A stretch of 64,000 nucleotides of DNA, taken from Klebsiella phage ZCKP1. The number at the start of each line of letters is the position of its first letter. Within the stretch, counting starts at the first letter, position 1. The stretch is from sequence record MH252123.1; one strand, 5' to 3'. Below the pieces are notes generated by a model. The model saw only the letters and a list, made by a program, of their open reading frames with translations, searched no databases and was not told the DNA's origin. Shown here piece by piece: positions 20,782 to 39,662 of the stretch. Both the position numbers and the translations under genes were made by a program.

Positions 20782-23700
20782 CTAGTGACAGGACGCCCAG
20801 GAGTTACCCACATCATATCCGGCAGTAAGCTGAACATTAAGATTGTAAAATTCTCCAGCCTTAGTAACAGCTAAAGCAGCAAGTTCACCTGCCCGACTAT
20901 AGGCTGTAAACCATCCACCTTTGGGAGATTCATGAATGTTAGCCCAAATTTGCCCTGTCTCTTTTTCCTTATTATGCTTCCATTCTTCAACTTTAGCAAG
21001 GCATTCTTTATCAATTTTCTTTTGTTCTTCAGGATCGTCTACTTTCTTCCAACCTAATGATTCAGGTGAAAACCATTTAAATTCTACAAGGTTACGAGAA
21101 ACTTCAAGCTGGGCTTCATCGTGATATGCAATCATTTGTTGCACGAAGTCTTTATTCTTCCAGTCATCTTTAAAGAAGTCAACACTTAGCCCTTCTTCTT
21201 CGATCATGTCATCATAAATAACCATTGCACGTTTGGCACAGATAACCCCACCACTTTGGAACAGAGAGTTAAGAATCGCGTGAGCAGAACGAGTAGGAAC
21301 CTTACGACCGTCAATACCCAAAACATACTGTTTACCAGTCTTAACCCAGAAATCGTTTAAACGTTCTTTAAGACGCGCCAGTGGGAATGCAGCTTCCCAG
21401 AAAGCATCGAACACCAGTTGCCCTGTGTATTTATCGCTACCAATTGTTTTAGCAACCTTGTCTGCTTGTGCACCATAAGTGATCCCGTATTTAACAGATT
21501 TCGCCGGACTACGTTCAAATTTACGTCCAATAGTTTCAGTGATACGTTTTGCCATCATTGTGTGAACATCATTAGGTTTCTCTAACAACAGAGCGTTACA
21601 ATATTCGTGTGGCTCCGGCTCGTACCGCCAACAGTTTCCTGTGATGGTAATGCAGTCTTTCTGACGCATGACCCACGTACCAAGTTCTGTTTGTGGACAC
21701 CAAACATCCTCTACACCCCACTCTTCAATAGTCAAACTTTGAACAGGAATGTGAGAGCGGTTAGTCAATGTTGCCACTTTTACTTTCTGCTCTTTTGTAT
21801 TGAAAGCTACAGAGATATTGCCTCCATGCACCAGGTACGAGGCAGTTAAAGCTGCTTCAAAAAGTTCACCTGGGTTCTGCGCCCAACGCCAAACAGGTTT
21901 TTGTTTATGTTCATGCCAGTAACCATCTGCAATCAAGAAACCTTCCAAGAAAGCTACACGCTCGGCATGAGACATATTAACTACACGCTCTACCCACGGA
22001 ACATCCCATTTACCTTGTTGAACATAAGTTAAACTATTTACCTGATCTTGTTCCATGTTAAATGGAGCATTACAAATAATATTATCTCCTGTGCAAAGCT
22101 CGGCAGTTGTTCTGACTTTAGGCACATAAGTATTCCCTTTACTACGGGTATTAACATACCAACGGTGATCTGCTGTTGCACGGTAAGTGTGTGATTTCCC
22201 TTTAATCTCAAACGTCTTACTATTTTTATAGAAGACCTTACCTTTTACTTTAGTCCATTCTTTCAGACCTGTTTCAGCATTGTACCCTAAAATCTCATCC
22301 CCTTCCTTCAGGTCGTGATATCCTACCCAACCTTTACGAGTCAAAGCTTGAGCATCCATCGGCACACAGTAATGTGACTCAATCTTTGCTTCCAAAGAGT
22401 CGAAGTCATAACCAATCTGGAAGTATTTAGGAACTTCTACACCAAACAAGTTACGCATCTCCCATCCAAACAAAGATGTGACACGAGGGATATTGGCTAC
22501 AGATCTATGCTTCATACGAGAGGTGGCAGCATCACATGTAGCGGCTGGGGTAGGAATACGCCCATCCGCCCTTACTGCGGCTAAGAAACCTTTATCGTAT
22601 TCTTGATCTTCTTCATCTTCTTCCCAATCAGCACCGCCACCTAAAATAGAGTTCCTACGATGCTTATACGTTAAGTATTCTACAATCTGTGTAGCATACG
22701 GGAATTTCTCACCCAAAGCTTGCAGGTTAGGACAGATTTCTTTTTCCTGACCTTTGGTAAAGCATGGGTTAGTCAATACTTTAAGACCGCGACCTTTACC
22801 TTTTGCTATACGCTCTTGAATCTTCCTTTCCAAAGTTTCCGGTGTGCACTCCAGATGATCACAACGATCCTGACAAAAATTAGAAGATAGAGTTTGCTCA
22901 ACGTAAGCTCGAATACCTTTCTGAAGTTCTTCCTCGCTCTTTTTAATCTTGGTGCCAGATTTAAGAGTCAAATCTTTATCTTTATATTCAGATGGTACCC
23001 AACCTAATCCTACAAGCCAGTTTTTAATATGGGTAGTATCGTTCAATGTTGCAGGGATATTAGGATCACACAAAGGCTCATCTGCTGCAACTGGCAGTTT
23101 CCACTCTTTCCCCAACATCACTAACCACCAATCTCCATCCCTCTCTTCCAAATGACCATCATGTTTCTTAGCAAAATTGATCATATGGTTAGTTGGCTCT
23201 AAGTTCTTTTTAATTTGCAACTTAGGTGGAATAAAAGCCTTAAGATAACCTTTTGTTGCTGGTTTAGGTGGCAAAATAGGCTCAACGAGTAAACGAAGAC
23301 GCTCCATTTCTGCATCCAAAAAAGCAAGGTTCTCTTCTGCTTGCTTCATGTTAAAAGCAAACCCACGGTGTTCCTGGCGTGTAATAATGTCTGCTACACG
23401 TTGTTCAAGTTCAAATGGACCTTCCCATTTATCATAATCACCCCATTCTTCCATAAGGTAATTATATACACTTGTGTTGGCTTTGTTATCATAGATACAG
23501 TAATAAAGCATATCCGCAGCAAAAGTCTTAAATCGATCTTCTTCTGGAATCTCTTTACGGAAATCTATTTTTACATCACCGCCTGCTTTTCGAGAAAGTG
23601 CTGCCAAGCTATGTCCTGATTTGCCCTCAATCTTTCGATCTGGGTTTAACACTTTACTCAAAATCAAAGAGTCAATAAGTTTTACCTTATTTTTGCCCCA

Positions 23701-24114
23701 CGTGTTATATTTAACACTGTAATCTAATCCATAAAACAGTTTTGTAGCCAACCAGTCATAGTTGATACCGTTGTGTGCCACAGCCATTTCAACCAAATAT
23801 TCAGGCTTGTCTTTAAAATAACCTTCATGATTAATAAAGTCTGGGAAATCTTTTAGTTGAAAATGTGTGTAATCTTGCGCCACATATTCTTTAAGAACAT
23901 ACGTGTATTTACCATCTGATTCTTCATAAGGACGCCCGTCAAAAATATACTTAGGGCCATCGTGGAAAGCTACTATTTCTCCTGTTTCATGGTTCTCTAA
24001 GACAATACAGTGCATTTGAAATGTGTCTTTGAGACGATAAGGACTAGCTAAATAATCGATAGTGTCATTATTCAACAATCCGTTTGCTTCAATATCCCAT
24101 GTAAACTTACTCAC
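20782..24114 (-). CDS. DNA polymerase, family A, with 3'-5' exonuclease domain, interrupted by an intein
   Basis: Exo I motif DIEANGL at the N-terminus. Pol A motif A is YDFDSLEAKI and motif B is RSPAKSVKYGITYGAQ. The segment NDVHTMMAKRITETIG parallels T7 gp5. There is an insertion of about 245 aa after motif A. Confidence 0.85.
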   Translation of the reverse strand: MSKFTWDIEANGLLNNDTIDYLASPYRLKDTFQMHCIVLENHETGEIVAFHDGPKYIFDGRPYEESDGKYTYVLKEYVAQDYTHFQLKDFPDFINHEGYFKDKPEYLVEMAVAHNGINYDWLATKLFYGLDYSVKYNTWGKNKVKLIDSLILSKVLNPDRKIEGKSGHSLAALSRKAGGDVKIDFRKEIPEEDRFKTFAADMLYYCIYDNKANTSVYNYLMEEWGDYDKWEGPFELEQRVADIITRQEHRGFAFNMKQAEENLAFLDAEMERLRLLVEPILPPKPATKGYLKAFIPPKLQIKKNLEPTNHMINFAKKHDGHLEERDGDWWLVMLGKEWKLPVAADEPLCDPNIPATLNDTTHIKNWLVGLGWVPSEYKDKDLTLKSGTKIKKSEEELQKGIRAYVEQTLSSNFCQDRCDHLECTPETLERKIQERIAKGKGRGLKVLTNPCFTKGQEKEICPNLQALGEKFPYATQIVEYLTYKHRRNSILGGGADWEEDEEDQEYDKGFLAAVRADGRIPTPAATCDAATSRMKHRSVANIPRVTSLFGWEMRNLFGVEVPKYFQIGYDFDSLEAKIESHYCVPMDAQALTRKGWVGYHDLKEGDEILGYNAETGLKEWTKVKGKVFYKNSKTFEIKGKSHTYRATADHRWYVNTRSKGNTYVPKVRTTAELCTGDNIICNAPFNMEQDQVNSLTYVQQGKWDVPWVERVVNMSHAERVAFLEGFLIADGYWHEHKQKPVWRWAQNPGELFEAALTASYLVHGGNISVAFNTKEQKVKVATLTNRSHIPVQSLTIEEWGVEDVWCPQTELGTWVMRQKDCITITGNCWRYEPEPHEYCNALLLEKPNDVHTMMAKRITETIGRKFERSPAKSVKYGITYGAQADKVAKTIGSDKYTGQLVFDAFWEAAFPLARLKERLNDFWVKTGKQYVLGIDGRKVPTRSAHAILNSLFQSGGVICAKRAMVIYDDMIEEEGLSVDFFKDDWKNKDFVQQMIAYHDEAQLEVSRNLVEFKWFSPESLGWKKVDDPEEQKKIDKECLAKVEEWKHNKEKETGQIWANIHESPKGGWFTAYSRAGELAALAVTKAGEFYNLNVQLTAGYDVGNSWASCH
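21634..22368 (-). other. intein (Hint domain with single LAGLIDADG-like motif) within the DNA polymerase
   Basis: Begins with Cys (CVPMDAQALTRKGW, block A-like). It contains a TxxH block B (RATADHRWYV) and a LAGLIDADG-like motif (LEGFLIADGY). It ends ...CITITGN followed by Cys+1. The flanking extein sequences align continuously with T7 pol. Confidence 0.55.
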
Positions 24115-24908
24115 TATTCCTCCTTTCTAATGTTCTCCAGAACCCACTGAAGCTCTTTTAAACTTAAACTTCTTACTCCCGCAGTTTTACTAGCTTCGGC
24201 TTTAAGTAACGGGTAAGCCTCAATGATACGCGTTTTAAGATCAGAAGTCAAGGCTTTTAAAAAATAGGTAGATGCTTCAGATAAAGAATCTTCTTCTGAT
24301 AACACTTTACCTGCACTTGCTCCCGCTCTCCTAACGGCTATGTCGTAGTCTTTACTGTTGCCTAATACGAATAGTCGATTTTCTCCTAAAACAACGGGAG
24401 AACGCTTCTCGTTGCGTTTAATCCATACCTGGAATACACAAGGAACATCCCAAGGTTCTCCATGAAGAATAAAAGATCCTTTTGGACATTCTTCTTCGTA
24501 AAGAAGATGCATGTGGGGATTTAGTTTGTGTGCAAAAAAGATTTTTTGAAATGTGCGAGGCAAGATAAAACAAATACCACCTTCGTTATCCAGCATTTCA
24601 GCACAATGGTTAAAGAACTTAATGGCAAGACTAGCATTTTTTCCAAATGGAGGATTACCGACAAAAGCAGTTACACTACCAACAGATTCAACAGATTGAG
24701 CTAAAAAATCTGCCTCAATACAATCTTCAAACTTAGGGTCAATATCAAAAGAAGTTATGTTTTTAAAACAAGAAGAGAAAGCTCCTTCTCCCGCAGATGG
24801 TTCTACGTAGTTAGCTTCCTCTCCAAAAATTTCTTTGATCTTATCACATAAGAACCCCGCATAAGCGGGGTTAGTGTAATATTGATCAAGTGTGTTCAAC
24901 TTGCTCAA
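24114..24908 (-). CDS. DNA N6-adenine methyltransferase
   Basis: N-terminal DQYYTNP, an AdoMet motif (EPSAGEGAF) and catalytic NPPF. Confidence 0.7.
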   Translation of the reverse strand: MSKLNTLDQYYTNPAYAGFLCDKIKEIFGEEANYVEPSAGEGAFSSCFKNITSFDIDPKFEDCIEADFLAQSVESVGSVTAFVGNPPFGKNASLAIKFFNHCAEMLDNEGGICFILPRTFQKIFFAHKLNPHMHLLYEEECPKGSFILHGEPWDVPCVFQVWIKRNEKRSPVVLGENRLFVLGNSKDYDIAVRRAGASAGKVLSEEDSLSEASTYFLKALTSDLKTRIIEAYPLLKAEASKTAGVRSLSLKELQWVLENIRKEE

Positions 24909-24917
24909 TAGTCCTCC

Positions 24918-25349
24918 TTAGTTGTTAGCGAACTCAATAGTGAGGTCAACTTTACCATCATCAGAAATAACCATGTTTTTGGTATTTTTAAAGATGATAT
25001 CTACTTTACCTTCACTTACACGACAGAATGCAACACCATCTGCAACTTTATCAATATAATATTTGTAAGAAAGAATACCTACTTTACTACGACCAGCACC
25101 TTTTGTGAAAGAAGGGCTTACATCGAAACGGAAACCTTTAGAAGAAACAACACGGTAAGAACGTCCAGTTGGAAGATGTTCAATAACAGAGACATTGTTC
25201 TCAACAACTTTTACAGCAAACTCTTCAGGATGATCCTCAACAATCATGTGTGGGATGGCAAATGCCAACGCTTGTTTGTGTTTAATAACACCAGCACCCA
25301 GAGCACCAGCAGCTTTAACTTTTGCATTCAGATCGATTGTCATACGCAT
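24918..25349 (-). CDS. hypothetical protein
   Basis: 143 aa ORF. Confidence 0.4.
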   Translation of the reverse strand: MRMTIDLNAKVKAAGALGAGVIKHKQALAFAIPHMIVEDHPEEFAVKVVENNVSVIEHLPTGRSYRVVSSKGFRFDVSPSFTKGAGRSKVGILSYKYYIDKVADGVAFCRVSEGKVDIIFKNTKNMVISDDGKVDLTIEFANN

Positions 25350-25423
25350 TTTTACTTCTCCTCTTGTTTGGTTGATGAGACAAGTATAAGTCCCTTCCGC
25401 AAAGTTGTCAACAGGTATTTTTA

Positions 25424-25441
25424 ATAAAAGGGCCGAAGCCC
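25424..25441 (-). terminator. stem-loop/terminator downstream of the primase-helicase gene
   Basis: On the - strand GGGC ttcg GCCC is followed by TTTTATTAAAA. Confidence 0.45.
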
Positions 25442-27220
25442 TTAGTAGTTGCTATCCGTAGGCAAATTAGCAGGATTGTTGAAATACTGCTCTTTGTCAT
25501 GCAGAGTTGCAGTTCTAATATCATAGTAAAACTGCCCTGCCGGACCCGTTTCCGAGAACTCACGGTTTTTTAGGATAAAGCAATGAGTCGTATTGCGTTC
25601 TACAGGGTCTTCAGCGGCTTTATCTCGTTCCAAAGCCAAGGTAATACCAGCACCTTTAGCCAAGAAACTACTACCCATTGCATCGTCCTCTGTTAAGTGT
25701 TCATTGCCACCATTAGCCGACTTCTTAACGTGTGAGATGACGATAATGGTTATAGCATACTCTTTCATGATGCGCTTCAACCATGTTGCTAACTCTTCCT
25801 GGGCTTGAACATCCATACCAGAAAGCAAATCAGAATAAGGGTCGATAACAAGAATTGTTACTCCAAAATAGATGATCATCTCCAAAACTTTTTCTTTGAT
25901 AGACTCCACATCTGCTCCACGATCATCACACACATAAAAACGTGGTGATCCATCTTCTCTTTCGTAAAAATCTAGGATTTTTTCTTTATTCTCTTCCAAG
26001 ATTTGAAATTTCTCTTCCGGTGTTTTCCTGTGTAGAGGAATATGCAAGAAAGAGGACAACAGGTTACGAGAATATTTCTTATAAGTTGCTTCCAAGGACA
26101 GAATACCTAGGGTATGTTCTGGGTGTGCAACGATAATATGTTTGGTGATCTCGTTCACCATCAAAGTTTTACCGATACTGGTCTTTGCCAGGATGACTGT
26201 AATCTCTTCCTCTACTAAACCACCACCCAGCATATTTGCAGCAACACGCATAAAAGGAGGCAAGGTAATCATCTTGGATTCCAAGCATTCTAGTGCAGCT
26301 TCATACAAGACATTAGAAGCATAAACACCTGCGGGAGTGTATAGACGAGCACTCCAAAAAGCTTTTACGAAATCCTTTGCACGACCTTCTTCCAGATACT
26401 GATTGGCATCCTTGAGATCCATCTGCATACGGTAGACTTTGTTACGAGGCAGCACCTTAACAATATTTTCAAATGCCTCATTACCTGCTTTGTCGTTATC
26501 CATGCAAACAATAATCTTCTTAAATTTTTCAAAGAAAGGATATTGTGCCTGGACTTGTTTATACATACTGGTTTCACCAGTTGTGCCACTTACTACAGCT
26601 GGAAGCTCATATTTACTGTCCAAGTTTTCAGATAGCATTTGATAAGCTGCCAGAGCATCGTGTTCACCACCTGTAATCACAACAGTATGAGAACGGTCTG
26701 CAAAACGAATTTGTCCAAAAAGATCTACATCTTTACCTACTTGACCAATAGGTTTACTGAAATCTTTAGGATGAATACGACGCTTAAAACCAACCAATTC
26801 TTTACCGATGGTAGTCGGATATAAACAACTTTCTACTACCATCTGATCCCCTTCCTGACGGTATTCATAACGAACACCATAGAAAGATGAAACTTTTTCT
26901 TTAATGCCTCGATAACCACGTGGGTTGGTTGATGTTTCTTGAACAATTTTACGATGAATCTGTTTATTAAATTCCGAACCCACAATCTCCTCCTCTTCTT
27001 CTAAAACTTCACCATTTTCTCGTAACCATTCTACGCTAGGAATAGTGTATTCACACGCAAAGCACTTAGCACCTTTATGCTCTCCATTAGAATCTAATCC
27101 ATAAACCATCAGGTTATTACGAGAGCGATCCTTGCCATTTTTCATGCAGCGCGGACAACCTGTATGTCCTTCCTTGCTAAGATCAACATCAAATCCATAT
27201 TTAGTTATAATGTGCGACAC
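25442..27220 (-). CDS. DNA primase/helicase (T7 gp4-like)
   Basis: N-terminal Zn-ribbon (CPRC...CFAC). A TOPRIM-like DNDKAG motif follows. The C-terminal half is a DnaB-type helicase with Walker A (TSIGKT). Confidence 0.8.
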   Translation of the reverse strand: MSHIITKYGFDVDLSKEGHTGCPRCMKNGKDRSRNNLMVYGLDSNGEHKGAKCFACEYTIPSVEWLRENGEVLEEEEEIVGSEFNKQIHRKIVQETSTNPRGYRGIKEKVSSFYGVRYEYRQEGDQMVVESCLYPTTIGKELVGFKRRIHPKDFSKPIGQVGKDVDLFGQIRFADRSHTVVITGGEHDALAAYQMLSENLDSKYELPAVVSGTTGETSMYKQVQAQYPFFEKFKKIIVCMDNDKAGNEAFENIVKVLPRNKVYRMQMDLKDANQYLEEGRAKDFVKAFWSARLYTPAGVYASNVLYEAALECLESKMITLPPFMRVAANMLGGGLVEEEITVILAKTSIGKTLMVNEITKHIIVAHPEHTLGILSLEATYKKYSRNLLSSFLHIPLHRKTPEEKFQILEENKEKILDFYEREDGSPRFYVCDDRGADVESIKEKVLEMIIYFGVTILVIDPYSDLLSGMDVQAQEELATWLKRIMKEYAITIIVISHVKKSANGGNEHLTEDDAMGSSFLAKGAGITLALERDKAAEDPVERNTTHCFILKNREFSETGPAGQFYYDIRTATLHDKEQYFNNPANLPTDSNY

Positions 27221-27232
27221 TTTGTTCTCCTG

Positions 27233-27511
27233 TTAAAATGGTTCGTTAGTCTCCATCATATATTCTGCTTCTAGTTCTTCCATGTGCTTTCTAAATTGGA
27301 AAGCAATTTCTGCTACAGTTACATTTAAATCTTTTTCAAAAACTTCTGTAGATCCTTCATAAAAACGAATACCGTCAATTAAAAGCCCTCCGTGGTAATC
27401 CCAATCGCTTTCACGAGAAAGTGGATTAGGTTCTTCATAATAGTAATCCACCTCCACGACCAAGGCTTTCCCGTTACGAGTGGTGTATTCAAAATCAAAA
27501 GTGTTAATCAT
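27233..27511 (-). CDS. hypothetical protein
   Basis: 92 aa. Confidence 0.4.
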   Translation of the reverse strand: MINTFDFEYTTRNGKALVVEVDYYYEEPNPLSRESDWDYHGGLLIDGIRFYEGSTEVFEKDLNVTVAEIAFQFRKHMEELEAEYMMETNEPF

Positions 27512-28455
27512 TATAGCTCCTCAAATAAAAGTCTACGACGCTCATTCAACACATCAATGTGATAATGAGTCCTGACATACTTAGCTAATGCTAATCCTTT
27601 CTCCATGCAAACATCGGGAGCACTTAATAAGTATTCCGTAATATCTTTCCACTCGGAAGGTGTTTCAGCAAAGAATAACAAATCTTTAAACTCTTGTGTA
27701 TGATAATTCTCACGAGGAGAGCAGATTAAAGGTAAACCCTTAGCACCTGCCTCAAGAATTTTAAGATTGCTTTTTGCATTATTAAACACGTTATCGATCA
27801 ATGGTGCAAGACTGATTTGATGACCATCGTAAGATTCCATGTAGTTGGCATATGGTCTTACACCTTCATAAACACAAGTTGGTGCTACATTTTCTCTGAT
27901 TACAGACCATTCACGACTACTTAAAACTTCGGAATCCCTACGAAAACCACATATTGTAAGATCTTTACCAAAATCGGGCAAGATAGCCAAATCTTGTTTA
28001 TGTGTTTCACTTCCAGCCCAGACTAATGGAGTTTTGGAGTAGCGATCACGGGTCAACACAAATTGACCTTCATCGTAAGGAAGTCCATTAGGGATTATGT
28101 GCACATTATCATTGTATTGTGAAAGTTCAACTTGCAAGGCAGGTGTCGTAGTTGTAACAAGATCACTGTGCTCTAAAAACCATTTTAAATGTTCACGAAT
28201 ACCTGATTCAAAAATACCTTCTAACATGTGTCCTTTTGGAATAACTAAAGAGTCATCCAAATCCATAACCATTTTAAAGCCCAGGTTTTTAAGGGCTAAA
28301 AAGCCCTCTTTACCTTTTGTTGGCACTCCGTTAAAAACGAAAACGTTGTGTTTAGGTTGTGAAGAGAACTGCCTTGAGTAAGGCAGCACTACCCTATGGA
28401 AATCGCAGACACTATAATTGATTCCGTTACGATTGTCAAGAATTATTTGTCCCAT
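27511..28455 (-). CDS. glycosyltransferase (GT-B-like), paralog 1
   Basis: 314 aa. It is a clear paralog of the next gene, sharing DLDD and VWAG motifs and the overall layout. Confidence 0.45.
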   Translation of the reverse strand: MGQIILDNRNGINYSVCDFHRVVLPYSRQFSSQPKHNVFVFNGVPTKGKEGFLALKNLGFKMVMDLDDSLVIPKGHMLEGIFESGIREHLKWFLEHSDLVTTTTPALQVELSQYNDNVHIIPNGLPYDEGQFVLTRDRYSKTPLVWAGSETHKQDLAILPDFGKDLTICGFRRDSEVLSSREWSVIRENVAPTCVYEGVRPYANYMESYDGHQISLAPLIDNVFNNAKSNLKILEAGAKGLPLICSPRENYHTQEFKDLLFFAETPSEWKDITEYLLSAPDVCMEKGLALAKYVRTHYHIDVLNERRRLLFEEL

Positions 28456-28462
28456 ACTTCAC

Positions 28463-29410
28463 CTACAAACTTTCAATGACCTGGCGTCGCAATTCGTTTG
28501 CATCTGCCAGATTATAATGTGTTCGAACATGTTCCGCTAAGAACAAGCCGCGATCTTCCCGATAGTTCGGATTGCGAAGAAGCTTAACAATTTCGTAATG
28601 CCATTCTGCTTTATTCTCTGCATAAGCAACAGCGCGAGCATCTACAGGGTTAAAATAAGGTAATACCTTAGAACAAACAATCGGAATACCTTTTGCCCCA
28701 GCTTCAAGGATTTTGAGATTACTTTTACAATTATTAAAATCATTATCTACCAAAGGAGCTATAGCAATAGCATGACTTTCGTAAACACTCATGTAATTAT
28801 CTAAATCTTTTACAGCAGCTTTATATTTGGCATTTGGTAAATTTCTGCGAATCTTAATCCACTCTTGTCCTGTGATGCTTTGTGATGCTTCATATCCCGC
28901 AATAGTAAGAAGTTCATCATCGAAAGTATTAGAGACTAGTCGTAAGTCGGGTTCGTGACTAGCACCGCCAGCCCATACAACAGGGGTACCGGATGAACGA
29001 TCATTTGACAAAGTGAATTGTCCACTATCAAAAGGAAGTGCATTTCGGATCACAACAACATTCCTATTTAAGTGACGGATCTTATATGCCAAATATTCCG
29101 TAGTCACAATGACCACATCAGCAAGCTTAATCATAGCCACAATAGCGTGAGTGTTTGACTCATATAAACTTGCTAAATAATGTTCTGGATTAAGTTGGTA
29201 GAAATCATCTAAATCTACAACAATTTTAACACCTTGACGTTTCAGGGACAGAACATATTCTGCACCTTTAGAATGAATACGGTTAAACACGACAACATCT
29301 TTCTTAGGCTGAAAATTATTGTTGTTAAATGGTATAACAATACGATGATAATCACAACCGCTGTGAGGTTTTGCATCAATTTTCAGTTTAGTCCATTTTT
29401 TATTTGACAT
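28463..29410 (-). CDS. glycosyltransferase (GT-B-like), paralog 2
   Basis: Paralogous to 27511..28455. The start was moved to the ATG (MSNKKW) at 29408-29410, which has AGGAGG 9 nt upstream. Confidence 0.45.
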   Translation of the reverse strand: MSNKKWTKLKIDAKPHSGCDYHRIVIPFNNNNFQPKKDVVVFNRIHSKGAEYVLSLKRQGVKIVVDLDDFYQLNPEHYLASLYESNTHAIVAMIKLADVVIVTTEYLAYKIRHLNRNVVVIRNALPFDSGQFTLSNDRSSGTPVVWAGGASHEPDLRLVSNTFDDELLTIAGYEASQSITGQEWIKIRRNLPNAKYKAAVKDLDNYMSVYESHAIAIAPLVDNDFNNCKSNLKILEAGAKGIPIVCSKVLPYFNPVDARAVAYAENKAEWHYEIVKLLRNPNYREDRGLFLAEHVRTHYNLADANELRRQVIESL

Positions 29411-30083
29411 GTGCCAGTGCCTCCTCATAAGAAATTCGGATTTTCCCATTTTTAATATCTTCTAAAGACGCTTTATATTCTTCCCAGTTAATGCCAATAG
29501 CAGCTTCTTTCTCTTCTTTTGTCAGGTTAGCAAAAGGCATAGGATTGTTTCCAAAAACATCGTCTGGGTGGATATAAGCCATGATACGAAGTGGACAAGG
29601 TATTGCCTGAATACCCTGATTCAAACCAGCAGCTTTCAAACGGTGTACCCATTCAGCATCTTCAAAACCATAGCCGTGAGTGTAAGGGCGGAAATAACCC
29701 ATCTTCTCAACAACGGCACGAGAATACATTGCAAATTGACACATTGCAAGCTCCCAGAGAATAACTTCTCCTTTACTCCCAACAACTTTATCTTTGAAAT
29801 ACTCCGGCATACCAAAGAAATCCCATCCTCCAGAGACAGCTTGATCTACAAAATATGTTTCCCATCCCTCTATGATTGGGTAGCAATCGTCGTCAAAAAT
29901 AAACCAATAATCATAACCTTCTTCATAAAACTGGTGCATAAGTTCATTCCTGGCATAAGCTACACCTTTACGATCTGGATCGTTGAATACTCGAAAATCT
30001 GCACGTGGATCTGTTACAAGGTAGTCTTTAAGTGGACGGACACCGACAGTGATAACACCCACTCCGATTTTAATATTTTCCAT
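29400..30083 (-). CDS. glycosyltransferase (GT-A-like, DxD)
   Basis: 227 aa with a DDD motif (FIFDDDCYP). Confidence 0.45.
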   Translation of the reverse strand: MENIKIGVGVITVGVRPLKDYLVTDPRADFRVFNDPDRKGVAYARNELMHQFYEEGYDYWFIFDDDCYPIIEGWETYFVDQAVSGGWDFFGMPEYFKDKVVGSKGEVILWELAMCQFAMYSRAVVEKMGYFRPYTHGYGFEDAEWVHRLKAAGLNQGIQAIPCPLRIMAYIHPDDVFGNNPMPFANLTKEEKEAAIGINWEEYKASLEDIKNGKIRISYEEALAHVK

Positions 30084-30091
30084 TTTCTCTC

Positions 30092-30655
30092 CTAAATAGT
30101 TTTACTGTGATCGTGACAGTGTAATAAATGATGTATAGACCGTTGAGGATTTGTTTGACCTAACCTGTAAATGTGAAACAGATACATTCCCCGCATCAAT
30201 CCTAACCTCTTTCCTTTTTCATGTAAAGTGCGAGAGAAAATTAAGTCGAATTGGATAGATTTTTCTTCGAAAGGAATTTCATTCCACAATGATTTTCTAA
30301 AAAGCAAAAAGAAACCTGCCAGAGGTGTTCCGAAAGGAACTTCTTCAACACTCACTTTATGATATTCTCTTGCAATCTTAGCATATTCTATATGGTTTAG
30401 AATATCTGGATCATCGTTAATTTGGTTAGAGAAAAGCTGATAACCACTGCCTAACCTGTTACAAGTTGCACCTATTACATCAAAAGGCGGGTTTGACATA
30501 ACAAGCTCTTCAAGCATAGATGGTTGATCAGGTAGGAGGAACATTGTATCGGTATCTCTTAAACACACCCAACTATCATCTGGAAGAACGGCAATGGCTT
30601 CATTGATAGCCTTGCCGATATTTCCTGTCAGATAGGGAGTAATATAATAAATCAT
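30092..30655 (-). CDS. glycosyltransferase-like protein (GT-A-like)
   Basis: 187 aa with a DTD motif (CLRDTDTMF). It is the fourth of four consecutive sugar-transferase-like genes. Confidence 0.4.
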   Translation of the reverse strand: MIYYITPYLTGNIGKAINEAIAVLPDDSWVCLRDTDTMFLLPDQPSMLEELVMSNPPFDVIGATCNRLGSGYQLFSNQINDDPDILNHIEYAKIAREYHKVSVEEVPFGTPLAGFFLLFRKSLWNEIPFEEKSIQFDLIFSRTLHEKGKRLGLMRGMYLFHIYRLGQTNPQRSIHHLLHCHDHSKTI

Positions 30656-30671
30656 TCTCCCCTCCGTTATA

Positions 30672-30863
30672 TTAACTGTCGGCTACAATCCCACGTTTAA
30701 TCATTTCTTGTTGAATCTGGATGACACGATCTCGTGCTTCCATATATTCTTTAAAAGATTCTTGGAGATGGTCACGGGCTACGTCCCGTAGTTTAATAAG
30801 TTTGTCGTTTGTCACTTCTTGAAGAGAGATCTCGCCAGTTTCATTGGTCCCAAGCGTTTTCAT
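30672..30863 (-). CDS. hypothetical protein
   Basis: 63 aa. Confidence 0.3.
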   Translation of the reverse strand: MKTLGTNETGEISLQEVTNDKLIKLRDVARDHLQESFKEYMEARDRVIQIQQEMIKRGIVADS

Positions 30864-31119
30864 TTACAACCTCCTTAATAGCTACTGCACAGTTCTTACA
30901 AATACATTGACCTTTGTTTTTAGAAATTTCAATGTAAGGTTCATTTTCGTTTTCTCCGCGTCGTGAATCGTATATTACTGTATTGAAGCAGACAACGCAA
31001 ATGTTTTTAATAACGACATATTTTTGCACTTTCTGTTTAGTGCGAAAATTGACTTCAATGACTTCTCCCATCAGTGAATCTCCCCTAAAATGTTGTTTTG
31101 AGACATTACTGCGGAGCAT
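30841..31119 (-). CDS. small zinc-ribbon protein
   Basis: 92 aa with CVVCF...CKNC. Confidence 0.35.
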   Translation of the reverse strand: MLRSNVSKQHFRGDSLMGEVIEVNFRTKQKVQKYVVIKNICVVCFNTVIYDSRRGENENEPYIEISKNKGQCICKNCAVAIKEVVNENAWDQ

Positions 31120-31418
31120 TCTACAGCATCATGAGTCCTTGCAAAACGCTCCCACAACACAGCATCTACTTTAAGAACCATACAAGGATAAATACTGTCG
31201 TTGATCATGTCAATGCTATATTTATCTACATCCTTTTCATCTTCCATAAACAAAGTAGCGTATGCTTCCAAATGTTTACGGGTGTAGTATACGTCTTCTT
31301 CGGTAAGACCGACAACCAGGTAACTTGCTACAACAACAGTATTATCTTCTTGCATTTTAACTCCCCTTTGGTAGATAGAAACCATGCACTTTATCTCGAT
31401 AAACAAGACGCATATCAC
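31071..31418 (-). CDS. hypothetical protein
   Basis: 115 aa. Confidence 0.35.
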   Translation of the reverse strand: MICVLFIEIKCMVSIYQRGVKMQEDNTVVVASYLVVGLTEEDVYYTRKHLEAYATLFMEDEKDVDKYSIDMINDSIYPCMVLKVDAVLWERFARTHDAVECSAVMSQNNILGEIH

Positions 31419-31977: not shown

Positions 31978-32580
31978 TTATGGACATTCATACCATTCTT
32001 TTTTACCACCGAAGGCCATCACCACATCACAAATATCCAGACCCGCTTTGCCTACACCATATGCTTTCAGCTTCCATTCCCCATCTTCACGAACCAAGGA
32101 AGCCACGTGGCAGATTGTGTTGCCAGCTACTTCAGGAGCCAGGAAGTCAAAATCCAGAATTTCCACATTGCGCTCGGAGTCGAAGATTTTAAGCATACCT
32201 TCAGAAGCATGACCAAAACGTTTCAGACCTGTATCATCATCAATGGTCAGAACAAAGGCAATCTCTTGTGCATCAGGGGAGATTTTAGCCAGAGTAATAT
32301 CAATCTGCTCCATGCTGCCAGTTCCATCACGAACATCGTCACCAGCGAAGGTAGAACGTTCAGGATCAAACTTGTTAGCATAGCAAACCAGATGACGTGC
32401 AGACAGCATTTCAGGATTGCCAGCGGCATTGTGACGACAAACCAGTGCACTTACATCCAGATCCAGTTTAGAATCAGATTTCCAAGAGAATTCCAGGCGC
32501 AGTTCTTTCAGAGCCGGAGCAACTTTCTTCAGGGAAATTTTTTCGCTAGAGCCTTTTTTCAGGGAAATTTTATCAGTCAT
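31978..32580 (-). CDS. terD: TerD-domain protein
   Basis: 200 aa. It has the N-terminal KISLKKG..KISLKK repeat. The body (DLDVSALV..., GDDVRDG, SLVREDGEWKLKAYG) matches TerD/TerZ family architecture. Confidence 0.7.
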   Translation of the reverse strand: MTDKISLKKGSSEKISLKKVAPALKELRLEFSWKSDSKLDLDVSALVCRHNAAGNPEMLSARHLVCYANKFDPERSTFAGDDVRDGTGSMEQIDITLAKISPDAQEIAFVLTIDDDTGLKRFGHASEGMLKIFDSERNVEILDFDFLAPEVAGNTICHVASLVREDGEWKLKAYGVGKAGLDICDVVMAFGGKKEWYECP

Positions 32581-32595
32581 CTTTTGTCTCCTCTA

Positions 32596-32865
32596 TTATT
32601 TAAGTGTAATACCAGTTACAGTCAATTCTACTTCCAAAAGCTTAGATGTGTTTTGGATTGATACTAATTGTGCATGATGGTTTAGTTCTACAGCAGAATA
32701 ATCATTTTCCCCATCGTCTACTTTTAAATAAACAATGATTTCACTAAGGTCTAAACCATTTTCGTCAAATGCATTTTCATAGACGAAAGTATCTCCTACA
32801 TCCAAATCTTTAATGGTAAGGCATCGTTTATTTACTTTTTGCTCATCAATTTCGAAGTTTAACAC
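32596..32865 (-). CDS. small beta-rich protein, paralog A
   Basis: 89 aa, paralogous to 33887..34231. Shared motifs are DLDVGxTFxY...AxExxGLD and ExxLxVTxITLK. Confidence 0.4.
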   Translation of the reverse strand: MLNFEIDEQKVNKRCLTIKDLDVGDTFVYENAFDENGLDLSEIIVYLKVDDGENDYSAVELNHHAQLVSIQNTSKLLEVELTVTGITLK

Positions 32866-33094
32866 TTCTTCCTCCTAATGTTATCTCCGGTTTGTATATA
32901 CGAAGAATTATAGCATTTTCATTTTCTTTGTCAACCCATTCTTCATAATCAGGCCATACATGAATCTCTACTCTACTTACAATATCTTCCATTCGCACAG
33001 TCCCAATGAAATACTCTTTGAGACTGCGCATAATGAAAGCTTCTCTCTCACGCCAATAATTTTCTATGACTTGAGAGGCAAGCTCGTCGATCAT
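32846..33094 (-). CDS. hypothetical protein
   Basis: 82 aa. Confidence 0.35.
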   Translation of the reverse strand: MIDELASQVIENYWREREAFIMRSLKEYFIGTVRMEDIVSRVEIHVWPDYEEWVDKENENAIILRIYKPEITLGGRSVKLRN

Positions 33095-33885
33095 TTTTTA
33101 GCACCTACTTTAACAACCCACTCTCCGAACTCTTCAGATAAGAGTTTGTCATAAAGTTCTGAATCTGTCAAGTCTAAATCTTTAATGCCAATAAAACCAA
33201 CATTATCATAAGCATTTGCCAGTTCTTTCAGGAAGCCAAACTTCTCATTACCAACGCCAACCATGAACCAATAAATAGGTTTATTCTTATTCTCTTCGAT
33301 AAGATGACGAACAGCACTAGGATCACCATTCTCACCATCAGTCTGGAAGAATACAACACCAGGGGTAACGTCAGCACCTGGTTCAGATACAGCTACAACT
33401 TTTTCACGCTCTACAGACACTGTTTCAGTTTTACCAAGCAGACGATTAAAGAAGCCTTTCTTTGGAGCCTCCTCTTGCACCACTTGTTTAGTGGTAATAT
33501 ATTTAGTAACAGTACCAAAATACTCATCGTAGATATCCGCCATTACAGGGGCGTAATTTGTTCCACCTCCGATACGAACATTACGCATACATTTACCAAC
33601 ATAGTCATCGTAAACATCTGCTGTTGCTGGAGTAAGCTCTTGGGAACTCGTATTGAAGGCCCACATATCAATTTGTTGATTATCGTCGAACAGCATACCA
33701 AAAGGAAGCAGTTTACCTACAAAATCACTCACTACCCCACTAGAATATAGACCATGCATACTACCAGAAATATCTAGAGCACATGCTACACGAAGAACAA
33801 TCTTACCTTCATTCAGGTTCTTATTCTTTTTCAGAGAGAAAGCAAGGTTTTCTTGACGTTTTTTCAGGCTGATTTTCTCGGACAT
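33091..33885 (-). CDS. vWA-domain protein (TerY-like) with TerD-like N-terminal ISLKK peptide
   Basis: The N-terminus is MSEKISLKK...FSLKK. A MIDAS motif (DISGSM) and downstream T/D ligands make up the von Willebrand A fold. Confidence 0.65.
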   Translation of the reverse strand: MSEKISLKKRQENLAFSLKKNKNLNEGKIVLRVACALDISGSMHGLYSSGVVSDFVGKLLPFGMLFDDNQQIDMWAFNTSSQELTPATADVYDDYVGKCMRNVRIGGGTNYAPVMADIYDEYFGTVTKYITTKQVVQEEAPKKGFFNRLLGKTETVSVEREKVVAVSEPGADVTPGVVFFQTDGENGDPSAVRHLIEENKNKPIYWFMVGVGNEKFGFLKELANAYDNVGFIGIKDLDLTDSELYDKLLSEEFGEWVVKVGAKK

Positions 33886-33886
33886 A

Positions 33887-34231
33887 TTATTTCTCCTTCT
33901 TAAGTGTAATATTGGTAACTTCTAAATCTACTTCCACCATATTTGTATCTGGTGGGATGCAATGAGTATAGCCTCGTTGTGCTAGTGATCCATTAATACA
34001 GATCGCACTGTTTGTGGAATTTTTAATGAACACCAAGTTACGGTAGGTATCCAACCCTGCGTCTTCATAGGCATCATAATACATGAATGTGGCCCCTACG
34101 TCAAGATCTTCGAAAGCAATAGGTAAATCCTGACTTTTTTCTTCTTGAATATTGAATCTAAACACGCATACCTCCTCTACCAATTTTGAAGCCCAAATCG
34201 TAAGCTTCCTTAGTGATCTTTTGTAACTCAC
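33887..34231 (-). CDS. small beta-rich protein, paralog B
   Basis: 114 aa, paralog of 32596..32865. Confidence 0.4.
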   Translation of the reverse strand: MSYKRSLRKLTIWASKLVEEVCVFRFNIQEEKSQDLPIAFEDLDVGATFMYYDAYEDAGLDTYRNLVFIKNSTNSAICINGSLAQRGYTHCIPPDTNMVEVDLEVTNITLKKEK

Positions 34232-34721
34232 TTATAGGAAGTGTTACAAGAGGATCATCTTCTTCAATTTCCATCTTGTCATCTTCTGTTTCAATGAGAG
34301 TATTATGCACTTTGTGATAAGGGTTGTCAACACGTTTAAACTTATTCTTTTCTGTGCTGAAAAAACAATCTGGATCTTCTTCACCATCCCCCCAACCTTG
34401 GTTAGGATCTCCGTCAGATTGTTCTGTAGGGATTTCACCTGTAAAGTACTCTTCCAGCACCATAGCAATACCGTCTCTTGGATTTGAGGAATGCATTAAA
34501 TCACAAACCTTACCCCAATCCGTAGCCCATTCGAACCGTTCACGAACGCCATTTTCACCCTCTTTTCCAGAGAAAACACAACCATAACTATCATAGTTGC
34601 CATACATCTCTTCAATAACAACACCGTCCTTCAAAAGAAAGAGGTAGCAAGGTGATCCGTCGAAAGAAGTAGAAAGGGCAGCTTTGCCCGATTCTTTGCA
34701 CAAAAAGCTAAAACAACCCAT
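34158..34721 (-). CDS. hypothetical protein
   Basis: 187 aa, acidic. Confidence 0.4.
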   Translation of the reverse strand: MGCFSFLCKESGKAALSTSFDGSPCYLFLLKDGVVIEEMYGNYDSYGCVFSGKEGENGVRERFEWATDWGKVCDLMHSSNPRDGIAMVLEEYFTGEIPTEQSDGDPNQGWGDGEEDPDCFFSTEKNKFKRVDNPYHKVHNTLIETEDDKMEIEEDDPLVTLPISELQKITKEAYDLGFKIGRGGMRV

Positions 34722-34924
34722 TACAAACCCTCCTTCAGATTATCAAGAGCTACAGTGGTTTCACAAGAGTCTCCATAAGTTTTATGATGTTCCAGAAAAG
34801 CTTCGGGTCCACCCCAGTCATTATCTTGTGTATTCCAGCCATCAATAAAAGCATCTTCAATGATTGTGATCAGTTCTTGTCGGGTTAACTGGATAATATT
34901 AGGATCGTTATCGTAGTTAAACAT
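34721..34924 (-). CDS. hypothetical protein
   Basis: 67 aa. Confidence 0.3.
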   Translation of the reverse strand: MFNYDNDPNIIQLTRQELITIIEDAFIDGWNTQDNDWGGPEAFLEHHKTYGDSCETTVALDNLKEGL

Positions 34925-35089
34925 CTTCTTCCTCCTCTAAAATATGGAACCCGTAATTACAATAATCCTGAAAGGTTTCGTGCGCAAGATCTTCTATATC
35001 CTCTTGAGACATATCATCTTCAATTTCGATATCCACAACCTCATTGCATCCACACCAAGCAGTTTCAATATTCACTCGTAATATTTTCA

Positions 35090-35284
35090 TTACTCCTCCT
35101 CATTGAAGTCAATATCTGCAAGGAGTTCGAATTTACGGAAGTTACGACAACCTTCATAAATATAACAATCACGACAAACTGCTAGAACACTTGGGGGATA
35201 TATACCTCCCATCGGTGCGAATCGTTTTTCGTCATCATAACGGACACCAATGTCTTCATCAATTATATAGATACGGATTCTCAT
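35090..35284 (-). CDS. hypothetical protein
   Basis: 64 aa. Confidence 0.3.
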   Translation of the reverse strand: MRIRIYIIDEDIGVRYDDEKRFAPMGGIYPPSVLAVCRDCYIYEGCRNFRKFELLADIDFNEEE

Positions 35285-36393
35285 TTACCAAGCCCTCGTT
35301 TCACAGCAGCTACCATCCCGTCTTCCAGAGATTGAACTTCATTAATATAATCAACACGAGCAGCACGGGCTTCCGTATTGATGCGGTTAGTTTCTTCCAA
35401 CATCTTAACCAAGTTTTCCTGATCGTGACGCAGAGTTTCAATATCCAACACTTGACGGTTAGCCAGTGCTGCTGCTTCGATCTGATTCTGTGTGGCAAGA
35501 TCGCTACCCAGTTTAATTGCCAGGTTAAATTCATCAAGAACGTTATTCTGCGTCTCTGCTGCTTTCATTTGACGTAAGCTCTCGATATACATTGAGAAGT
35601 TAGCAGAGTAAGCAGGAATAACATTATTTACTATGTTACGCGCAGATCGCATTAAGCTTGCAGAAACTTTTTGCATACCTTGTACACGCGGTCCCATTTG
35701 GACACACAGTAGGCGCAATGCTTTTAAATCTGCAATACGAATCTCCAGAAGATCCAAAGTATCTCGGATCACTTGTCGCTGTTCTACTGCATCTTCTGGA
35801 AGAGCAGCCAAAGCTTGTTCTTCTTTTTCATAGGTTGCTGTTAGAAGCTGCATATCTCGGTTCAAACTTGCAGCATATTGTCCAATAGCTTGATGTAGCT
35901 TTTCAAGATATACCAAGGAATCTTCTTCTTTGCGAATATCCATTTGAAGGTTCTTTACCAACTCTTCAATACGGTTATTAACATTATCAAACTCCCCAAA
36001 CAGGTCTTCTTTCATACCCATAACTTTTTTAATGAGTTTAGTAATACCCTTGCTTTGTTTAATAGAGTTTGGATCAAGTTGTTTTGCCTGTTTAATCAAA
36101 GCTGTGAGTCGTTCACTCATCTGATCGCCTTGATTACTACGTTGATGTTTTAATACCTCGGCATTCAAGGAACGCAAGGTTGTTCCTGCCTCTGCCCCAA
36201 TCTCTTCGATCTCTTGTCGGGTCATAGAAGGCAAAACTGGAACTTCTTGCGGTGCTGCTGGTGCATAAACAGGACTGGCATCTAACACACTTGGAGCGAA
36301 TACAGATTTACTTGCATCTGTTGTTGCAGCGAATACACTCATTTCAGACTTCTTCTGACCACCAGTAGCTGCTTTTAAAAATGGACTTGTCAT
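35281..36393 (-). CDS. TelA-like (toxic anion resistance/KlaA family) protein
   Basis: 370 aa and all-helical. It has long coiled-coil heptads and conserved blocks resembling TelA. It sits in a cluster with TerD, TerC and a vWA protein. Confidence 0.55.
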   Translation of the reverse strand: MTSPFLKAATGGQKKSEMSVFAATTDASKSVFAPSVLDASPVYAPAAPQEVPVLPSMTRQEIEEIGAEAGTTLRSLNAEVLKHQRSNQGDQMSERLTALIKQAKQLDPNSIKQSKGITKLIKKVMGMKEDLFGEFDNVNNRIEELVKNLQMDIRKEEDSLVYLEKLHQAIGQYAASLNRDMQLLTATYEKEEQALAALPEDAVEQRQVIRDTLDLLEIRIADLKALRLLCVQMGPRVQGMQKVSASLMRSARNIVNNVIPAYSANFSMYIESLRQMKAAETQNNVLDEFNLAIKLGSDLATQNQIEAAALANRQVLDIETLRHDQENLVKMLEETNRINTEARAARVDYINEVQSLEDGMVAAVKRGLGK

Positions 36394-36980
36394 TCTTCAT
36401 TCTCCTCTTCTGCATCTCTTATATATGGTGAAACACCGTACTCTTTAGCTACTTTAACCCAATCATCCCATTTATACAACCATAATTTTCCTTCAGTTCC
36501 TTCTTTATCTGATTTCAACCACATGTTAGGTTGCTTACCTGGGTACATGCGATTAGGTTTACGATTATAACCTCTAACACATCTTGTCGCAAACCTATCT
36601 ACCAGAACAAGAACATATTTATATTCGTGGTTCAACGGCTCTTTGGAAGTGGCTTTAGGATTAGCCCCTAATTCTGCTGCCAGTTTTTGCCAATGAGCAC
36701 CATGCCTACTAAACTTACCCATACAACCATCAATAGCGTGAGCAATTTCGTGCTTCATTGTATCCACGATCATATCTCTTGTGGAGTTCTTATGCAAGTG
36801 CCAATTTACAACAACAATCTTATCTCGGTAGTTGCACCAACCAAAAGAGTTATTCACTTTGTTTCTAACGCAAGCTTTATATCCTGCTTCACGTAACATG
36901 TTGTAGTAAACAGGAAAATCTTCTTTTATTTCCTGCATCACTTCCCACCACAAAAGTTGCAAGTCTCTCTCGGTATGCAT
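36390..36980 (-). CDS. SprT-like zinc metalloprotease domain protein
   Basis: HExxH motif (MKHEIAHAIDG) with a downstream His, and a Trp-rich N-terminus. Confidence 0.5.
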   Translation of the reverse strand: MHTERDLQLLWWEVMQEIKEDFPVYYNMLREAGYKACVRNKVNNSFGWCNYRDKIVVVNWHLHKNSTRDMIVDTMKHEIAHAIDGCMGKFSRHGAHWQKLAAELGANPKATSKEPLNHEYKYVLVLVDRFATRCVRGYNRKPNRMYPGKQPNMWLKSDKEGTEGKLWLYKWDDWVKVAKEYGVSPYIRDAEEENEE

Positions 36981-36983
36981 AAC

Positions 36984-37577: not shown

Positions 37578-37591
37578 TGTTTTTCTCCTTA

Positions 37592-38029: not shown

Positions 38030-38216
38030 ATTTGCTTTCCTCATTTTGACTATTAATACATCTGTGTTTGAAATCTCCAGAGAAGCAATAAAGTTGCTCT
38101 CCATCTCGGTATAAACTTACTTTACTGCCGTTGATTACGCTTGTCAATACAAAAATTACAACAAACAACCCTATTGCAAAACAAATATTTTCAAACACAA
38201 TCAACAAGTATTTCAT
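37971..38216 (-). CDS. small membrane protein (N-terminal TM)
   Basis: 81 aa. Its TM helix (LLIVFENICFAIGLFVVIFVLTSV) overlaps the lipoprotein gene start in another frame. Confidence 0.3.
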   Translation of the reverse strand: MKYLLIVFENICFAIGLFVVIFVLTSVINGSKVSLYRDGEQLYCFSGDFKHRCINSQNEESKYEKTSPDFNWLYLFNSLRG

Positions 38217-38563: not shown

Positions 38564-38579
38564 AAGTCTCTCCTATAAA

Positions 38580-38598
38580 ATAGCCTCCCGAAGGAGGC
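38580..38598 (-). terminator. rho-independent terminator downstream of terC
   Basis: On the - strand AGCCTCC ttcg GGAGGCT is followed by ATTTTATAGG. Confidence 0.5.
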
Positions 38599-39659: not shown

Positions 39660-39662
39660 CAC

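Follow-up and report, generated by a model that had tools for sequence, protein, structure and literature searches.

The four consecutive glycosyltransferase (GT) genes GT1 to GT4, which lie on one strand of a 64,000-nucleotide stretch of Klebsiella phage ZCKP1 (MH252123.1; this whole stretch is referred to below as the window), represent one copy of a gene cassette which is also found in other types of phage. Judging from sequence comparison, the cassette is a self-contained and horizontally mobile unit composed of GT4, GT3 and a GT-B enzyme, the last of which has been duplicated in the window. The best explanation of its function, to which we would give a probability of about 0.42, is that its enzymes attach a rhamnose-containing glycan to virion proteins at a late stage. 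A first-pass annotation of the window had proposed instead that the GTs glycosylate hydroxymethylated DNA bases, but this is contradicted by a missing hydroxymethylase, by the absence of homology to DNA glycosyltransferases, and by restriction data. It should be noted that the GT cluster itself has already been annotated and discussed in the literature; the present analysis adds that three GT families form a mobile cassette, and that this cassette recurs in late or structural modules.

The cassette and its enzymes

Over its full length, the region 24000-31200 of the window shares 98.7% identity with Escherichia phage ESCO5 (NC_047776.2), a Phapecoctavirus of the Stephanstirmvirinae, and about 60 further genomes also match this region. 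The whole window corresponds approximately to 79.9-143.9 kb of the ESCO5 genome, which measures 149 kb and encodes 273 proteins. The four consecutive open reading frames (ORFs) which had been noticed in the first pass are indeed present, all on the minus strand (Table 1), and are the RefSeq coding sequences gp214 to gp211 of ESCO5, each labelled "glycosyltransferase". Because all four match PHROG glycosyltransferase families (E values of 1e-78 to 6e-149) they can be taken as real genes and not as chance ORFs. For GT2 a longer ORF extends to 29449, the PHROG alignment begins at residue 19, and RefSeq uses 29410 as the start. There is an 11-nt overlap between GT3 and GT2, all four genes have a Shine-Dalgarno sequence of their own, and a terminator scan found no minus-strand terminator within the cluster. 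The promoter scan returned 60 promoter-like sites where 44.6 ± 6.1 would be expected, and terminators were no more frequent than background; these counts say nothing on the timing of expression. No transmembrane segment or signal-like N-terminus was found in any of the four GTs, the maximum 19-residue Kyte-Doolittle hydropathy being 0.76-1.66.

The enzyme classes assigned in the first pass, two paralogous GT-B enzymes and two GT-A enzymes with a DxD motif, are borne out as regards the paralogy and, from motifs and predicted folds, the GT-A pair, and GT-B is the probable class of the other two. GT1 and GT2 share 41% identity (E 1e-77) and are thus paralogs. Their matches to Pfam PF13524 (Glyco_trans_1_2) are marginal (25.2 bits for GT1 and 20.6 bits for GT2, with a cutoff of 25), a match of the pair to PF13692 is sub-threshold (22.7 bits against a cutoff of 27), and most GT-B homologs carry a precomputed PF13524 match. 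The profile of the GT-B family weakly matches the nucleoside diphosphate (NDP)-sugar domain at the C-terminus of TreT, PglA and BshA (E ~1e-3). Single-sequence searches of GT1, GT3 and GT4 against the Protein Data Bank (PDB) gave nothing meaningful, whilst in profile searches against the PDB two of the family profiles had only chance matches and a third only weak GT4-class C-terminal matches; neither the four GTs nor a methyltransferase encoded nearby (discussed below) matched any NCBIfam model.

No sequence similarity was found between GT3 and GT4. In the family alignment of GT3 the sequence F-I-F-D-D-D is invariant (D64-D65-D66), and in that of GT4 D34-x-D36-T37 is invariant and R33 nearly so; both families are narrow, with 14 and 32 clusters, respectively, at 90% identity, and appear to be restricted to phages. 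The AlphaFold2 models of GT3 (pLDDT 81) and GT4 (pLDDT 91) both adopt a GT-A fold and match many GT-A enzymes in Foldseek at a probability of 1.0, so that on these models both proteins are predicted GT-A enzymes with a conserved DxD motif. The best PDB match of GT3 is STIV A197 (8.9e-6), followed by LH3, B4GALNT1 and ColGalT1, while GT4 matches LH3, ColGalT1, K4CP, GalNAc-T2, TarP and RmlT. The fold neighbours of both are therefore protein- or glycan-directed GT-A enzymes together with the viral enzyme STIV A197, and no DNA glycosyltransferase is among them. When GT3 was compared with the predicted viral structures of BFVD, Megavirus GTs were among the best matches and TAGT appeared from rank 30 downwards, no closer than generic GT-A enzymes. 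GT4 has no Pfam or NCBIfam match and GT3 has sub-threshold Pfam matches only. Outside its own phage group the only relatives of GT3 are some 350 mycobacteriophage GTs (E ~1e-8), of which those of cluster-F mycobacteriophages show 27% identity (E 4e-8).

The mobility of the cassette is seen in a prophage labelled as from Serratia sp. M24T3, which carries a GT4-like gene (41%, E 3e-53), a GT3-like gene (37%, E 7e-44) and a single GT-B gene (51%) in the same order as in the window, here placed between lysis genes and genes for HNH, TerS, TerL, a protease-capsid protein and portal. Apart from these three GTs, the ESCO5 genome has no protein in common with the contig of this prophage or with siphophage L027 (contigs are given by their L numbers). 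Within the lineage of large myophages to which the window belongs most contigs have four GTs; three contigs carry GT4-GT2-GT1 (L013-L015), one GT4-GT2 (L016), and the two most divergent ones (L025 and L026) GT4-GT3 and one GT2-like gene. This variation in gene content leads to an ancestral unit of GT4, GT3 and one GT-B gene, with GT1 as a lineage-specific duplicate. GT2 is closer to the single GT-B enzymes (51% identity in the Serratia prophage and 48% in L027), the Serratia protein being nearer to GT2 than to GT1 (39%), and GT1 is absent from the most divergent cassettes, where one GT2-like gene is kept. On these sequence relationships GT2 is the ancestral-type GT-B of the cassette and GT1 the derived copy. 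The first-pass suggestion that four enzymes imply a di- or oligosaccharide product remains plausible as regards an oligosaccharide, but four enzymes need not mean four distinct linkages, since GT1 is such a duplicate. Phage phi92 has the same four genes as gp163-166, the fold labels in its record being TreT-like GT-B, GT-B, ppGalNAc-T2-like and generic GT. A scan of bacterial genomes with the GT4 profile retrieved one contig of a metagenome-assembled genome only, identical to phage and with no chromosomal context.

Acceptor and donor of the glycan

In siphophage L027 the gene order is TerL, portal, Mu-F-like, a Gp13-like major capsid protein (MCP; E 1e-106), GT4-like, GT3-like, GT-B, connector-like, tail tube and tape measure. 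All of these genes share the same strand, and the cassette is separated from the MCP gene by 25 nt and from the connector-like gene by 12 nt. In L098 a fragment of the MCP gene is followed by GT3, GT-B and GT4 and then by tail tube and tape measure genes, and in L102 a GT-B/GT3 pair is located between a tail-repeat protein gene and genes for HNH, TerL, a Mu-type portal, an S49 protease and an E-type capsid protein. L095, L106 and L107 have a GT pair upstream of lysis and/or terminase genes, the terminases being of three different families. For GT4 taken by itself, 72 viral loci were retrieved, and their GT4-like domains form nine clusters at 50% identity; six of the eight GT4-like clusters outside the cassette group have head-module genes beside the GT. 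One of these is a large lineage with a fused TOD1/MUCI70-like and GT4-like protein encoded between portal and protease/capsid; Cellulophaga phage phi12:1 has the same portal-to-protease/capsid placement, next to a Methyltransf_24 gene; in another the GT is beside the portal gene with a gene resembling Che8 gp108 nearby; head genes are likewise present in the clusters of L037, of L068, and of L078 and L080 (within the L076-L082 cluster). Just upstream of TerL, L027 also encodes a 747-aa NACHT/STAND-type NTPase (738-2981, minus strand) with the look of a defence-type moron, which suggests a temperate lifestyle for this phage.

These cassettes in tightly packed structural operons, the fold neighbours of the enzymes, and the kinship of GT3 with mycobacteriophage GTs make virion proteins the likeliest acceptor. 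The cassette is linked to nucleotide-sugar metabolism by three observations: ESCO5 encodes RmlD, RmlC, RmlA and RmlB (gp083-086), whose scores all exceed the NCBIfam equivalog cutoffs; at a minimum of 60% identity, RmlC has homologs in 130 phage records and GT4 likewise in 130; and in L026 a gene for an NDP-sugar epimerase/dehydratase is inserted within the cassette. From the rml genes, rhamnose is likely, though unproven, to be a component of the product. We would thus propose that four soluble cytoplasmic enzymes build a short oligosaccharide stepwise on a non-DNA acceptor, in an order of steps that can only be surmised, from donors which would include dTDP-L-rhamnose made by the phage's own rmlABCD, encoded elsewhere in the genome. 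The acceptor would be at least one structural protein of the virion, for which tail fibres or other exposed parts are presumably better candidates than the ordered capsid shell, and the modification would take place late, as a coliphage counterpart of the virion glycosylation of mycobacteriophages and giant viruses. The broader proposition, that the three-family cassette is a widespread virion-glycosylation module of Gram-negative phages which here places a rhamnose glycan on exposed parts such as the lateral fibres, is put forward more tentatively.

Two known systems offer themselves for comparison. Freeman et al. in 2023 reportedly described virion glycosylation in mycobacteriophages which involves Che8 gp108-110 and relatives. 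As in that system, the cassette consists of two to four soluble, mostly GT-A phage GTs common to unrelated phages, the only outside relatives of GT3 are mycobacteriophage GTs, and GT4-like genes elsewhere co-occur (in five contigs) with genes resembling Che8 gp108, in which a GT2 domain and a Methyltransf_24/TylF domain are fused; a like pairing of GT and Methyltransf_24 is seen in phi12:1. The genomic association with virion morphogenesis genes which would be expected of a Che8-type system is found in L027, L098, L102, the Serratia prophage, phi12:1 and several GT4-like clusters, but not in the lineage of the window. The window phage further differs in adding its own dTDP-rhamnose pathway, and in that no glycan has been seen on phi92 virions; GT1, GT2 and GT4 showed no similarity to Che8 gp108-110. 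The other parallel is the glycosylation of capsids or fibrils in giant and archaeal viruses, where STIV A197 and the GTs of chloroviruses and mimiviruses are accompanied by virus-encoded NDP-sugar pathways. A virus-encoded nucleotide-sugar pathway with several soluble GT-A enzymes is common to these viruses and the window phage, and both STIV A197 and the Megavirus GTs rank among the closest structural matches of GT3, but this likeness is one of fold only (TM-score ~0.4-0.7, 10-19% identity) and the viruses and hosts are unrelated.

Several points weigh against glycosylation of the virion. A 2026 cryo-EM paper on phi92 (capsid at 3.0-3.9 Å, baseplate at 3.2 Å) mentions no glycans or extra density, and because these maps come from a phage that bears the cluster, dense glycosylation of capsid, sheath or baseplate is unlikely; if virion glycosylation does occur here it is probably confined to the unresolved fibres (at 7 Å or unmodelled), to flexible termini, or to low occupancy. 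In the lineage of the window the cassette adjoins replication genes (the primase-helicase) and a gene for a SleB-like hydrolase, not structural genes. The similarity of GT3 to the N-terminal GT2 domain of Che8 gp108 is weak (21% over 138 aa, E 0.003) and is too marginal for family membership. No acceptor protein travels with the cassette, which fits a host-derived acceptor equally well. Late-region moron genes of temperate phages can serve lysogenic conversion, and two of the clearest contexts, the Serratia prophage and probably L027, may be those of temperate phages. The acceptor, finally, is deduced from genomic context, predicted folds and the distant kinship of GT3.

Collagen was briefly entertained as a model for the acceptor, as the models of both GT-A enzymes match collagen GTs best, and was dropped since this likeness of fold is generic; no recurrence of a collagen-like ORF within 10 kb of the GT was found across 74 other loci. 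Both the window and Cellulophaga phage phi12:1 do encode a collagen-repeat fibre. That of the window, 674 aa in length, is a tail-fibre or tail-spike protein in which a Tail_spike_N domain is accompanied by four Lys/Thr-rich collagen-like G-X-Y runs (Pfam Collagen E 3e-12), and it is a conceivable target of glycosylation, with no collagen-like ORF recurring near the cassette elsewhere.

The idea that rhamnose or another sugar is placed on modified bases of phage DNA in order to evade restriction has also been published as a speculation: Olsen et al. (2020; PMC7552041), who described in phapecoctaviruses and phi92-like phages a complete pathway to dTDP-rhamnose, suggested that rhamnose might glycosylate hydroxymethylated nucleotides. 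As with T-even DNA glucosylation (gp42, gp56, alpha-gt and beta-gt) and the TET-associated GTs, the cluster of the large-myophage lineage sits among the replication genes of large lytic coliphages, and GT3 has short sub-threshold matches to TAGT (19.4 bits against a cutoff of 27.5, over the 37 residues 32-68 only) and to phrog_842, the PHROG of beta-glucosyl-HMC alpha-glucosyltransferase (39 residues); the genome furthermore encodes a MazG/PRA-PH-type nucleotide pyrophosphohydrolase and an NT5C-like nucleotidase. To our knowledge, every characterised pyrimidine hydroxymethylase has the ThyA fold. The search for such an enzyme which the first pass had advised was run genome-wide, with T4 gp42 and td exon 1 as probes (phmmer --max) on 2070 stop-to-stop frames of ESCO5 and the window, and no ThyA-fold enzyme was found in the 149-kb genome (best E 0.15), a result which is the genomic half of what the first-pass annotation had itself said would point to a non-DNA substrate. 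The borderline match to gp42 was gp060, which was rejected as a hidden hydroxymethylase as it is a DUF7275/DUF7277 protein. The sole annotated "thymidylate synthase", gp097, is of the Thy1/ThyX type (35 bits in Pfam against a cutoff of 24.8; TIGR02170 at 31.6 bits, below cutoff). In the same 2070 frames there were no homologs of T4 alpha-gt or beta-gt (best E 0.07, outside the GT genes) and none of the dCTPase gp56, and no TET/JBP, 2-oxoglutarate-oxygenase or C5-methyltransferase domains were found among about 30 of the 273 ESCO5 proteins scanned with Pfam, which comprised all annotated "DNA methyltransferases" and most unknowns of at least 200 aa.

Restriction data also speak against it. In the collection which yielded ESCO5, HincII failed on three phages only, ESCO10, ESCO47 and ESCO58, of which ESCO47 (a Dhakavirus) and ESCO58 (a Tequatrovirus) are relatives of the T-even phages; neither the Phapecoctavirus isolates ESCO5, 13, 25 and 37 nor the Justusliebigvirus isolates ESCO8, 9 and 32 are among the three, and therefore these, whose DNA HincII cuts, were typed by their HincII fragments (PMC10269720). 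Phi92-like phages are moreover "exceptionally susceptible" to restriction-modification (RM) systems (PMC8594841), and the phi92-like phages PaulScherrer, EmilieFrey and JohannJBalmer of the BASEL collection have both the GT cluster and rml genes. In addition, homologous cassettes lie inside the structural operons of small siphophages, and in the sequence available these phages have no comparable nucleotide-metabolism genes. Genome content together with the HincII and RM data thus makes a pervasive DNA hypermodification very unlikely, a sparse and site-specific modification would be compatible with these data, and glycosylation of DNA bases as the role of the cassette is in our view highly improbable.

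The host surface polysaccharide, which had been named in the first pass as the fallback, is a live rival to virion proteins as acceptor but is less favoured. The GTs would in this case remodel envelope glycans of the host at the membrane's inner face, acting on undecaprenyl-linked intermediates, on the lipopolysaccharide (LPS) core or on enterobacterial common antigen (ECA), and the rhamnose side chains would mask receptors, which would exclude superinfecting phages or reduce the sticking of progeny to debris; we consider both this remodelling and this effect unlikely. ECA and LPS core are indeed receptors of these phages (PMC8594841), rmlABCD are classic O-antigen genes, PglA, which acts on an undecaprenyl-pyrophosphate-linked sugar, is among the closest solved relatives of the GT-B family by sequence, and one GT-B homolog has been named diacylglycerol glucosyltransferase by JGI. 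The movement of the cassette among phages with unrelated structural proteins is as would be expected if the acceptor were derived from the host, and its site in the prophage, after the lysis genes, is typical of morons. GtrABC/GtrABS O-antigen glucosylation offers a precedent for phage-borne GTs which alter an adsorption-relevant glycan (PMC11990801), but Gtr systems combine a flippase, a bactoprenol GT and an integral-membrane GT in temperate phages, whereas the window phage is virulent and has four soluble GTs with no flippase, polymerase or integral-membrane partner in the cluster. It is also difficult to reconcile the envelope with the cassettes of L027 and L098, which are within structural operons and, in L027, leave no room for a promoter of their own, or with the GT4-like domains encoded between portal and capsid genes in many phages; expression at a late stage would come too late to remodel the surface, and a complete modification of the surface glycan during lytic infection is likely to be futile (Maffei et al. 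2025, PMC11990801).

Less probable still is an acceptor of another kind, either a cytoplasmic protein of the host or phage, as in the arginine rhamnosylation of EarP or in toxin-like GTs, or a metabolite tied to the module of Ter, PRTase, HAD and Macro genes nearby. The solubility of the four GTs and the lack of a conserved acceptor travelling with the cassette would both be in line with such a role, and the cluster always adjoins the Ter module, with its PRTase_3, HAD-like and Macro genes, in the large-myophage lineage; Ter genes do not, however, accompany the cassette in the Serratia prophage, L027, L098 or L102, the GT folds contain no pointer to a small-molecule acceptor, and the head-module context is hard to square with host takeover.

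Neighbouring genes and other features

Throughout the large-myophage lineage the GT cluster is placed between the SleB-like gene, orf76 and orf63 on one side and orf92 and the primase-helicase on the other. The setting given in the first pass, between primase-helicase and replication module, is therefore right for the primase-helicase side, but the far flank is occupied by the SleB-like hydrolase and then the Ter module. The small conserved orf92 is syntenic in all contigs with four GTs and was undetected in the most divergent contigs with three GTs, L025 and L026; in phages of other types the cassette was found without it. No matches to membrane-protein families were found among the genes flanking the cluster (Pfam and PHROG).

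The first-pass annotation had further paired the GTs with an adjacent Dam-like methyltransferase (MTase). This gene is separated from the cluster by 2.6 kb, which hold orf92, the primase-helicase and orf143, and is not of the Dam family, since it has an NPPF motif and a weak Eco57I-like match only. It is predicted to be an N6-adenine MTase, with the motif FVGNPPFGKN. Of the contigs, only the near-identical L010 and L011 have it; it is absent from L012 (80% identity), from all more distant contigs and from phi92, and is a variable insert of the closest Phapecoctavirus relatives only; a functional partnership of the MTase with the GTs was for this reason rejected. One GenBank record appears to call it "DarB-like anti-restriction". 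Elsewhere in ESCO5, outside the window, a gene between portal and scaffold (63543-64022; L003 13543-14022) which RefSeq names "DNA methyltransferase" is an XkdF-type prohead protease (Peptidase_S78_2 E 1.4e-11), and the other two "DNA methyltransferases" of ESCO5, gp058 and gp075, are without Pfam support.

Table 1. Positions of the GT genes and of other features in the window.
Feature	Position	Strand	Description
Collagen-repeat fibre	12944-14965	+	674 aa, tail-fibre/tail-spike
DNA polymerase	20782-24114	-	Family A, 1110 aa
MTase	24114-24908	-	Predicted N6-adenine MTase, phrog_5172
orf92	27233-27511	-	Small conserved ORF, phrog_4240 E 6e-33
GT1	27511-28455	-	314 aa, GT-B-type, phrog_7162 E 1.9e-145
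GT2	28463-29410	-	315 aa, GT-B-type, phrog_7162 E 6e-149
GT3	29400-30083	-	227 aa, predicted minimal GT-A, phrog_2456 E 1e-78
GT4	30092-30655	-	187 aa, predicted small GT-A, phrog_14179 E 8.5e-113
TerD	31978-32580	-	Ter-type module (31978-41860)
Candidate promoter	32907-32934	-	Extended sigma-70 consensus
vWA-TerF-like	33091-33885	-	Ter-type module
TelA	35281-36393	-	Ter-type module
TerC	38609-39580	-	Ter-type module
Macro-domain protein	39897-40370	-	Ter-type module, annotated "phosphatase"
PRTase_3/ComF-like protein	40384-41211	-	Ter-type module
HAD-like hydrolase	41207-41860	-	Ter-type module
NADAR-domain protein	59673-60215	+	RefSeq "GTP cyclohydrolase II"

The window phage, a virulent one, has a Ter-type module of which the genes for TerD, vWA and TelA adjoin the GT cluster across the large-myophage contigs that reach them. 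A perfect extended sigma-70 consensus (TTGACA, 16 nt, TG, TATAAT) lies upstream of these GTs, of TerD and of the SleB-like gene, and from its sequence may be a candidate early promoter of the host RNA polymerase for this minus-strand block. The RefSeq "GTP cyclohydrolase II" listed in Table 1 is a NADAR-domain protein (PF08719 E 1.8e-35; TIGR02464), and the presence of both NADAR and Macro-domain genes hints at ADP-ribose-related chemistry. The family-A DNA polymerase has a Pfam polymerase A match over residues 845-1009 only, and homologs in other contigs align to it in two separate parts, which points to a large insertion that may be an intein, although Pfam identified none at E <= 0.001.

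It should also be noted that the records named Campylobacter phage B15, A110a and A145 and Acinetobacter phage vB_AbaM_ABPW7 are genomes of the coliphage lineage; two of them (B15 and ABPW7) share 98-100% identity with the window, and the other two (A110a and A145) belong with the phi92-like phages. All four host labels are probably erroneous or due to contamination.

Significance for coliphages

As the published speculation on rhamnose and DNA fits neither genome content nor restriction data, neither annotation nor modelling should treat the GT cluster as an anti-restriction modification of DNA. The recurrence of the cassette in head modules redirects the hypothesis to virion glycosylation, which can be tested cheaply. 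Phapecoctavirus and phi92-like phages are broad-host-range coliphages which have been repeatedly isolated for therapy and biocontrol. If virion glycosylation by the cassette proves true, it would be extended to phages of Gram-negative hosts, and a glycan made by the phage and carried on its virion would have consequences for recognition by antibodies, clearance, binding to mucus and adsorption, as it does for glycosylated mycobacteriophages.

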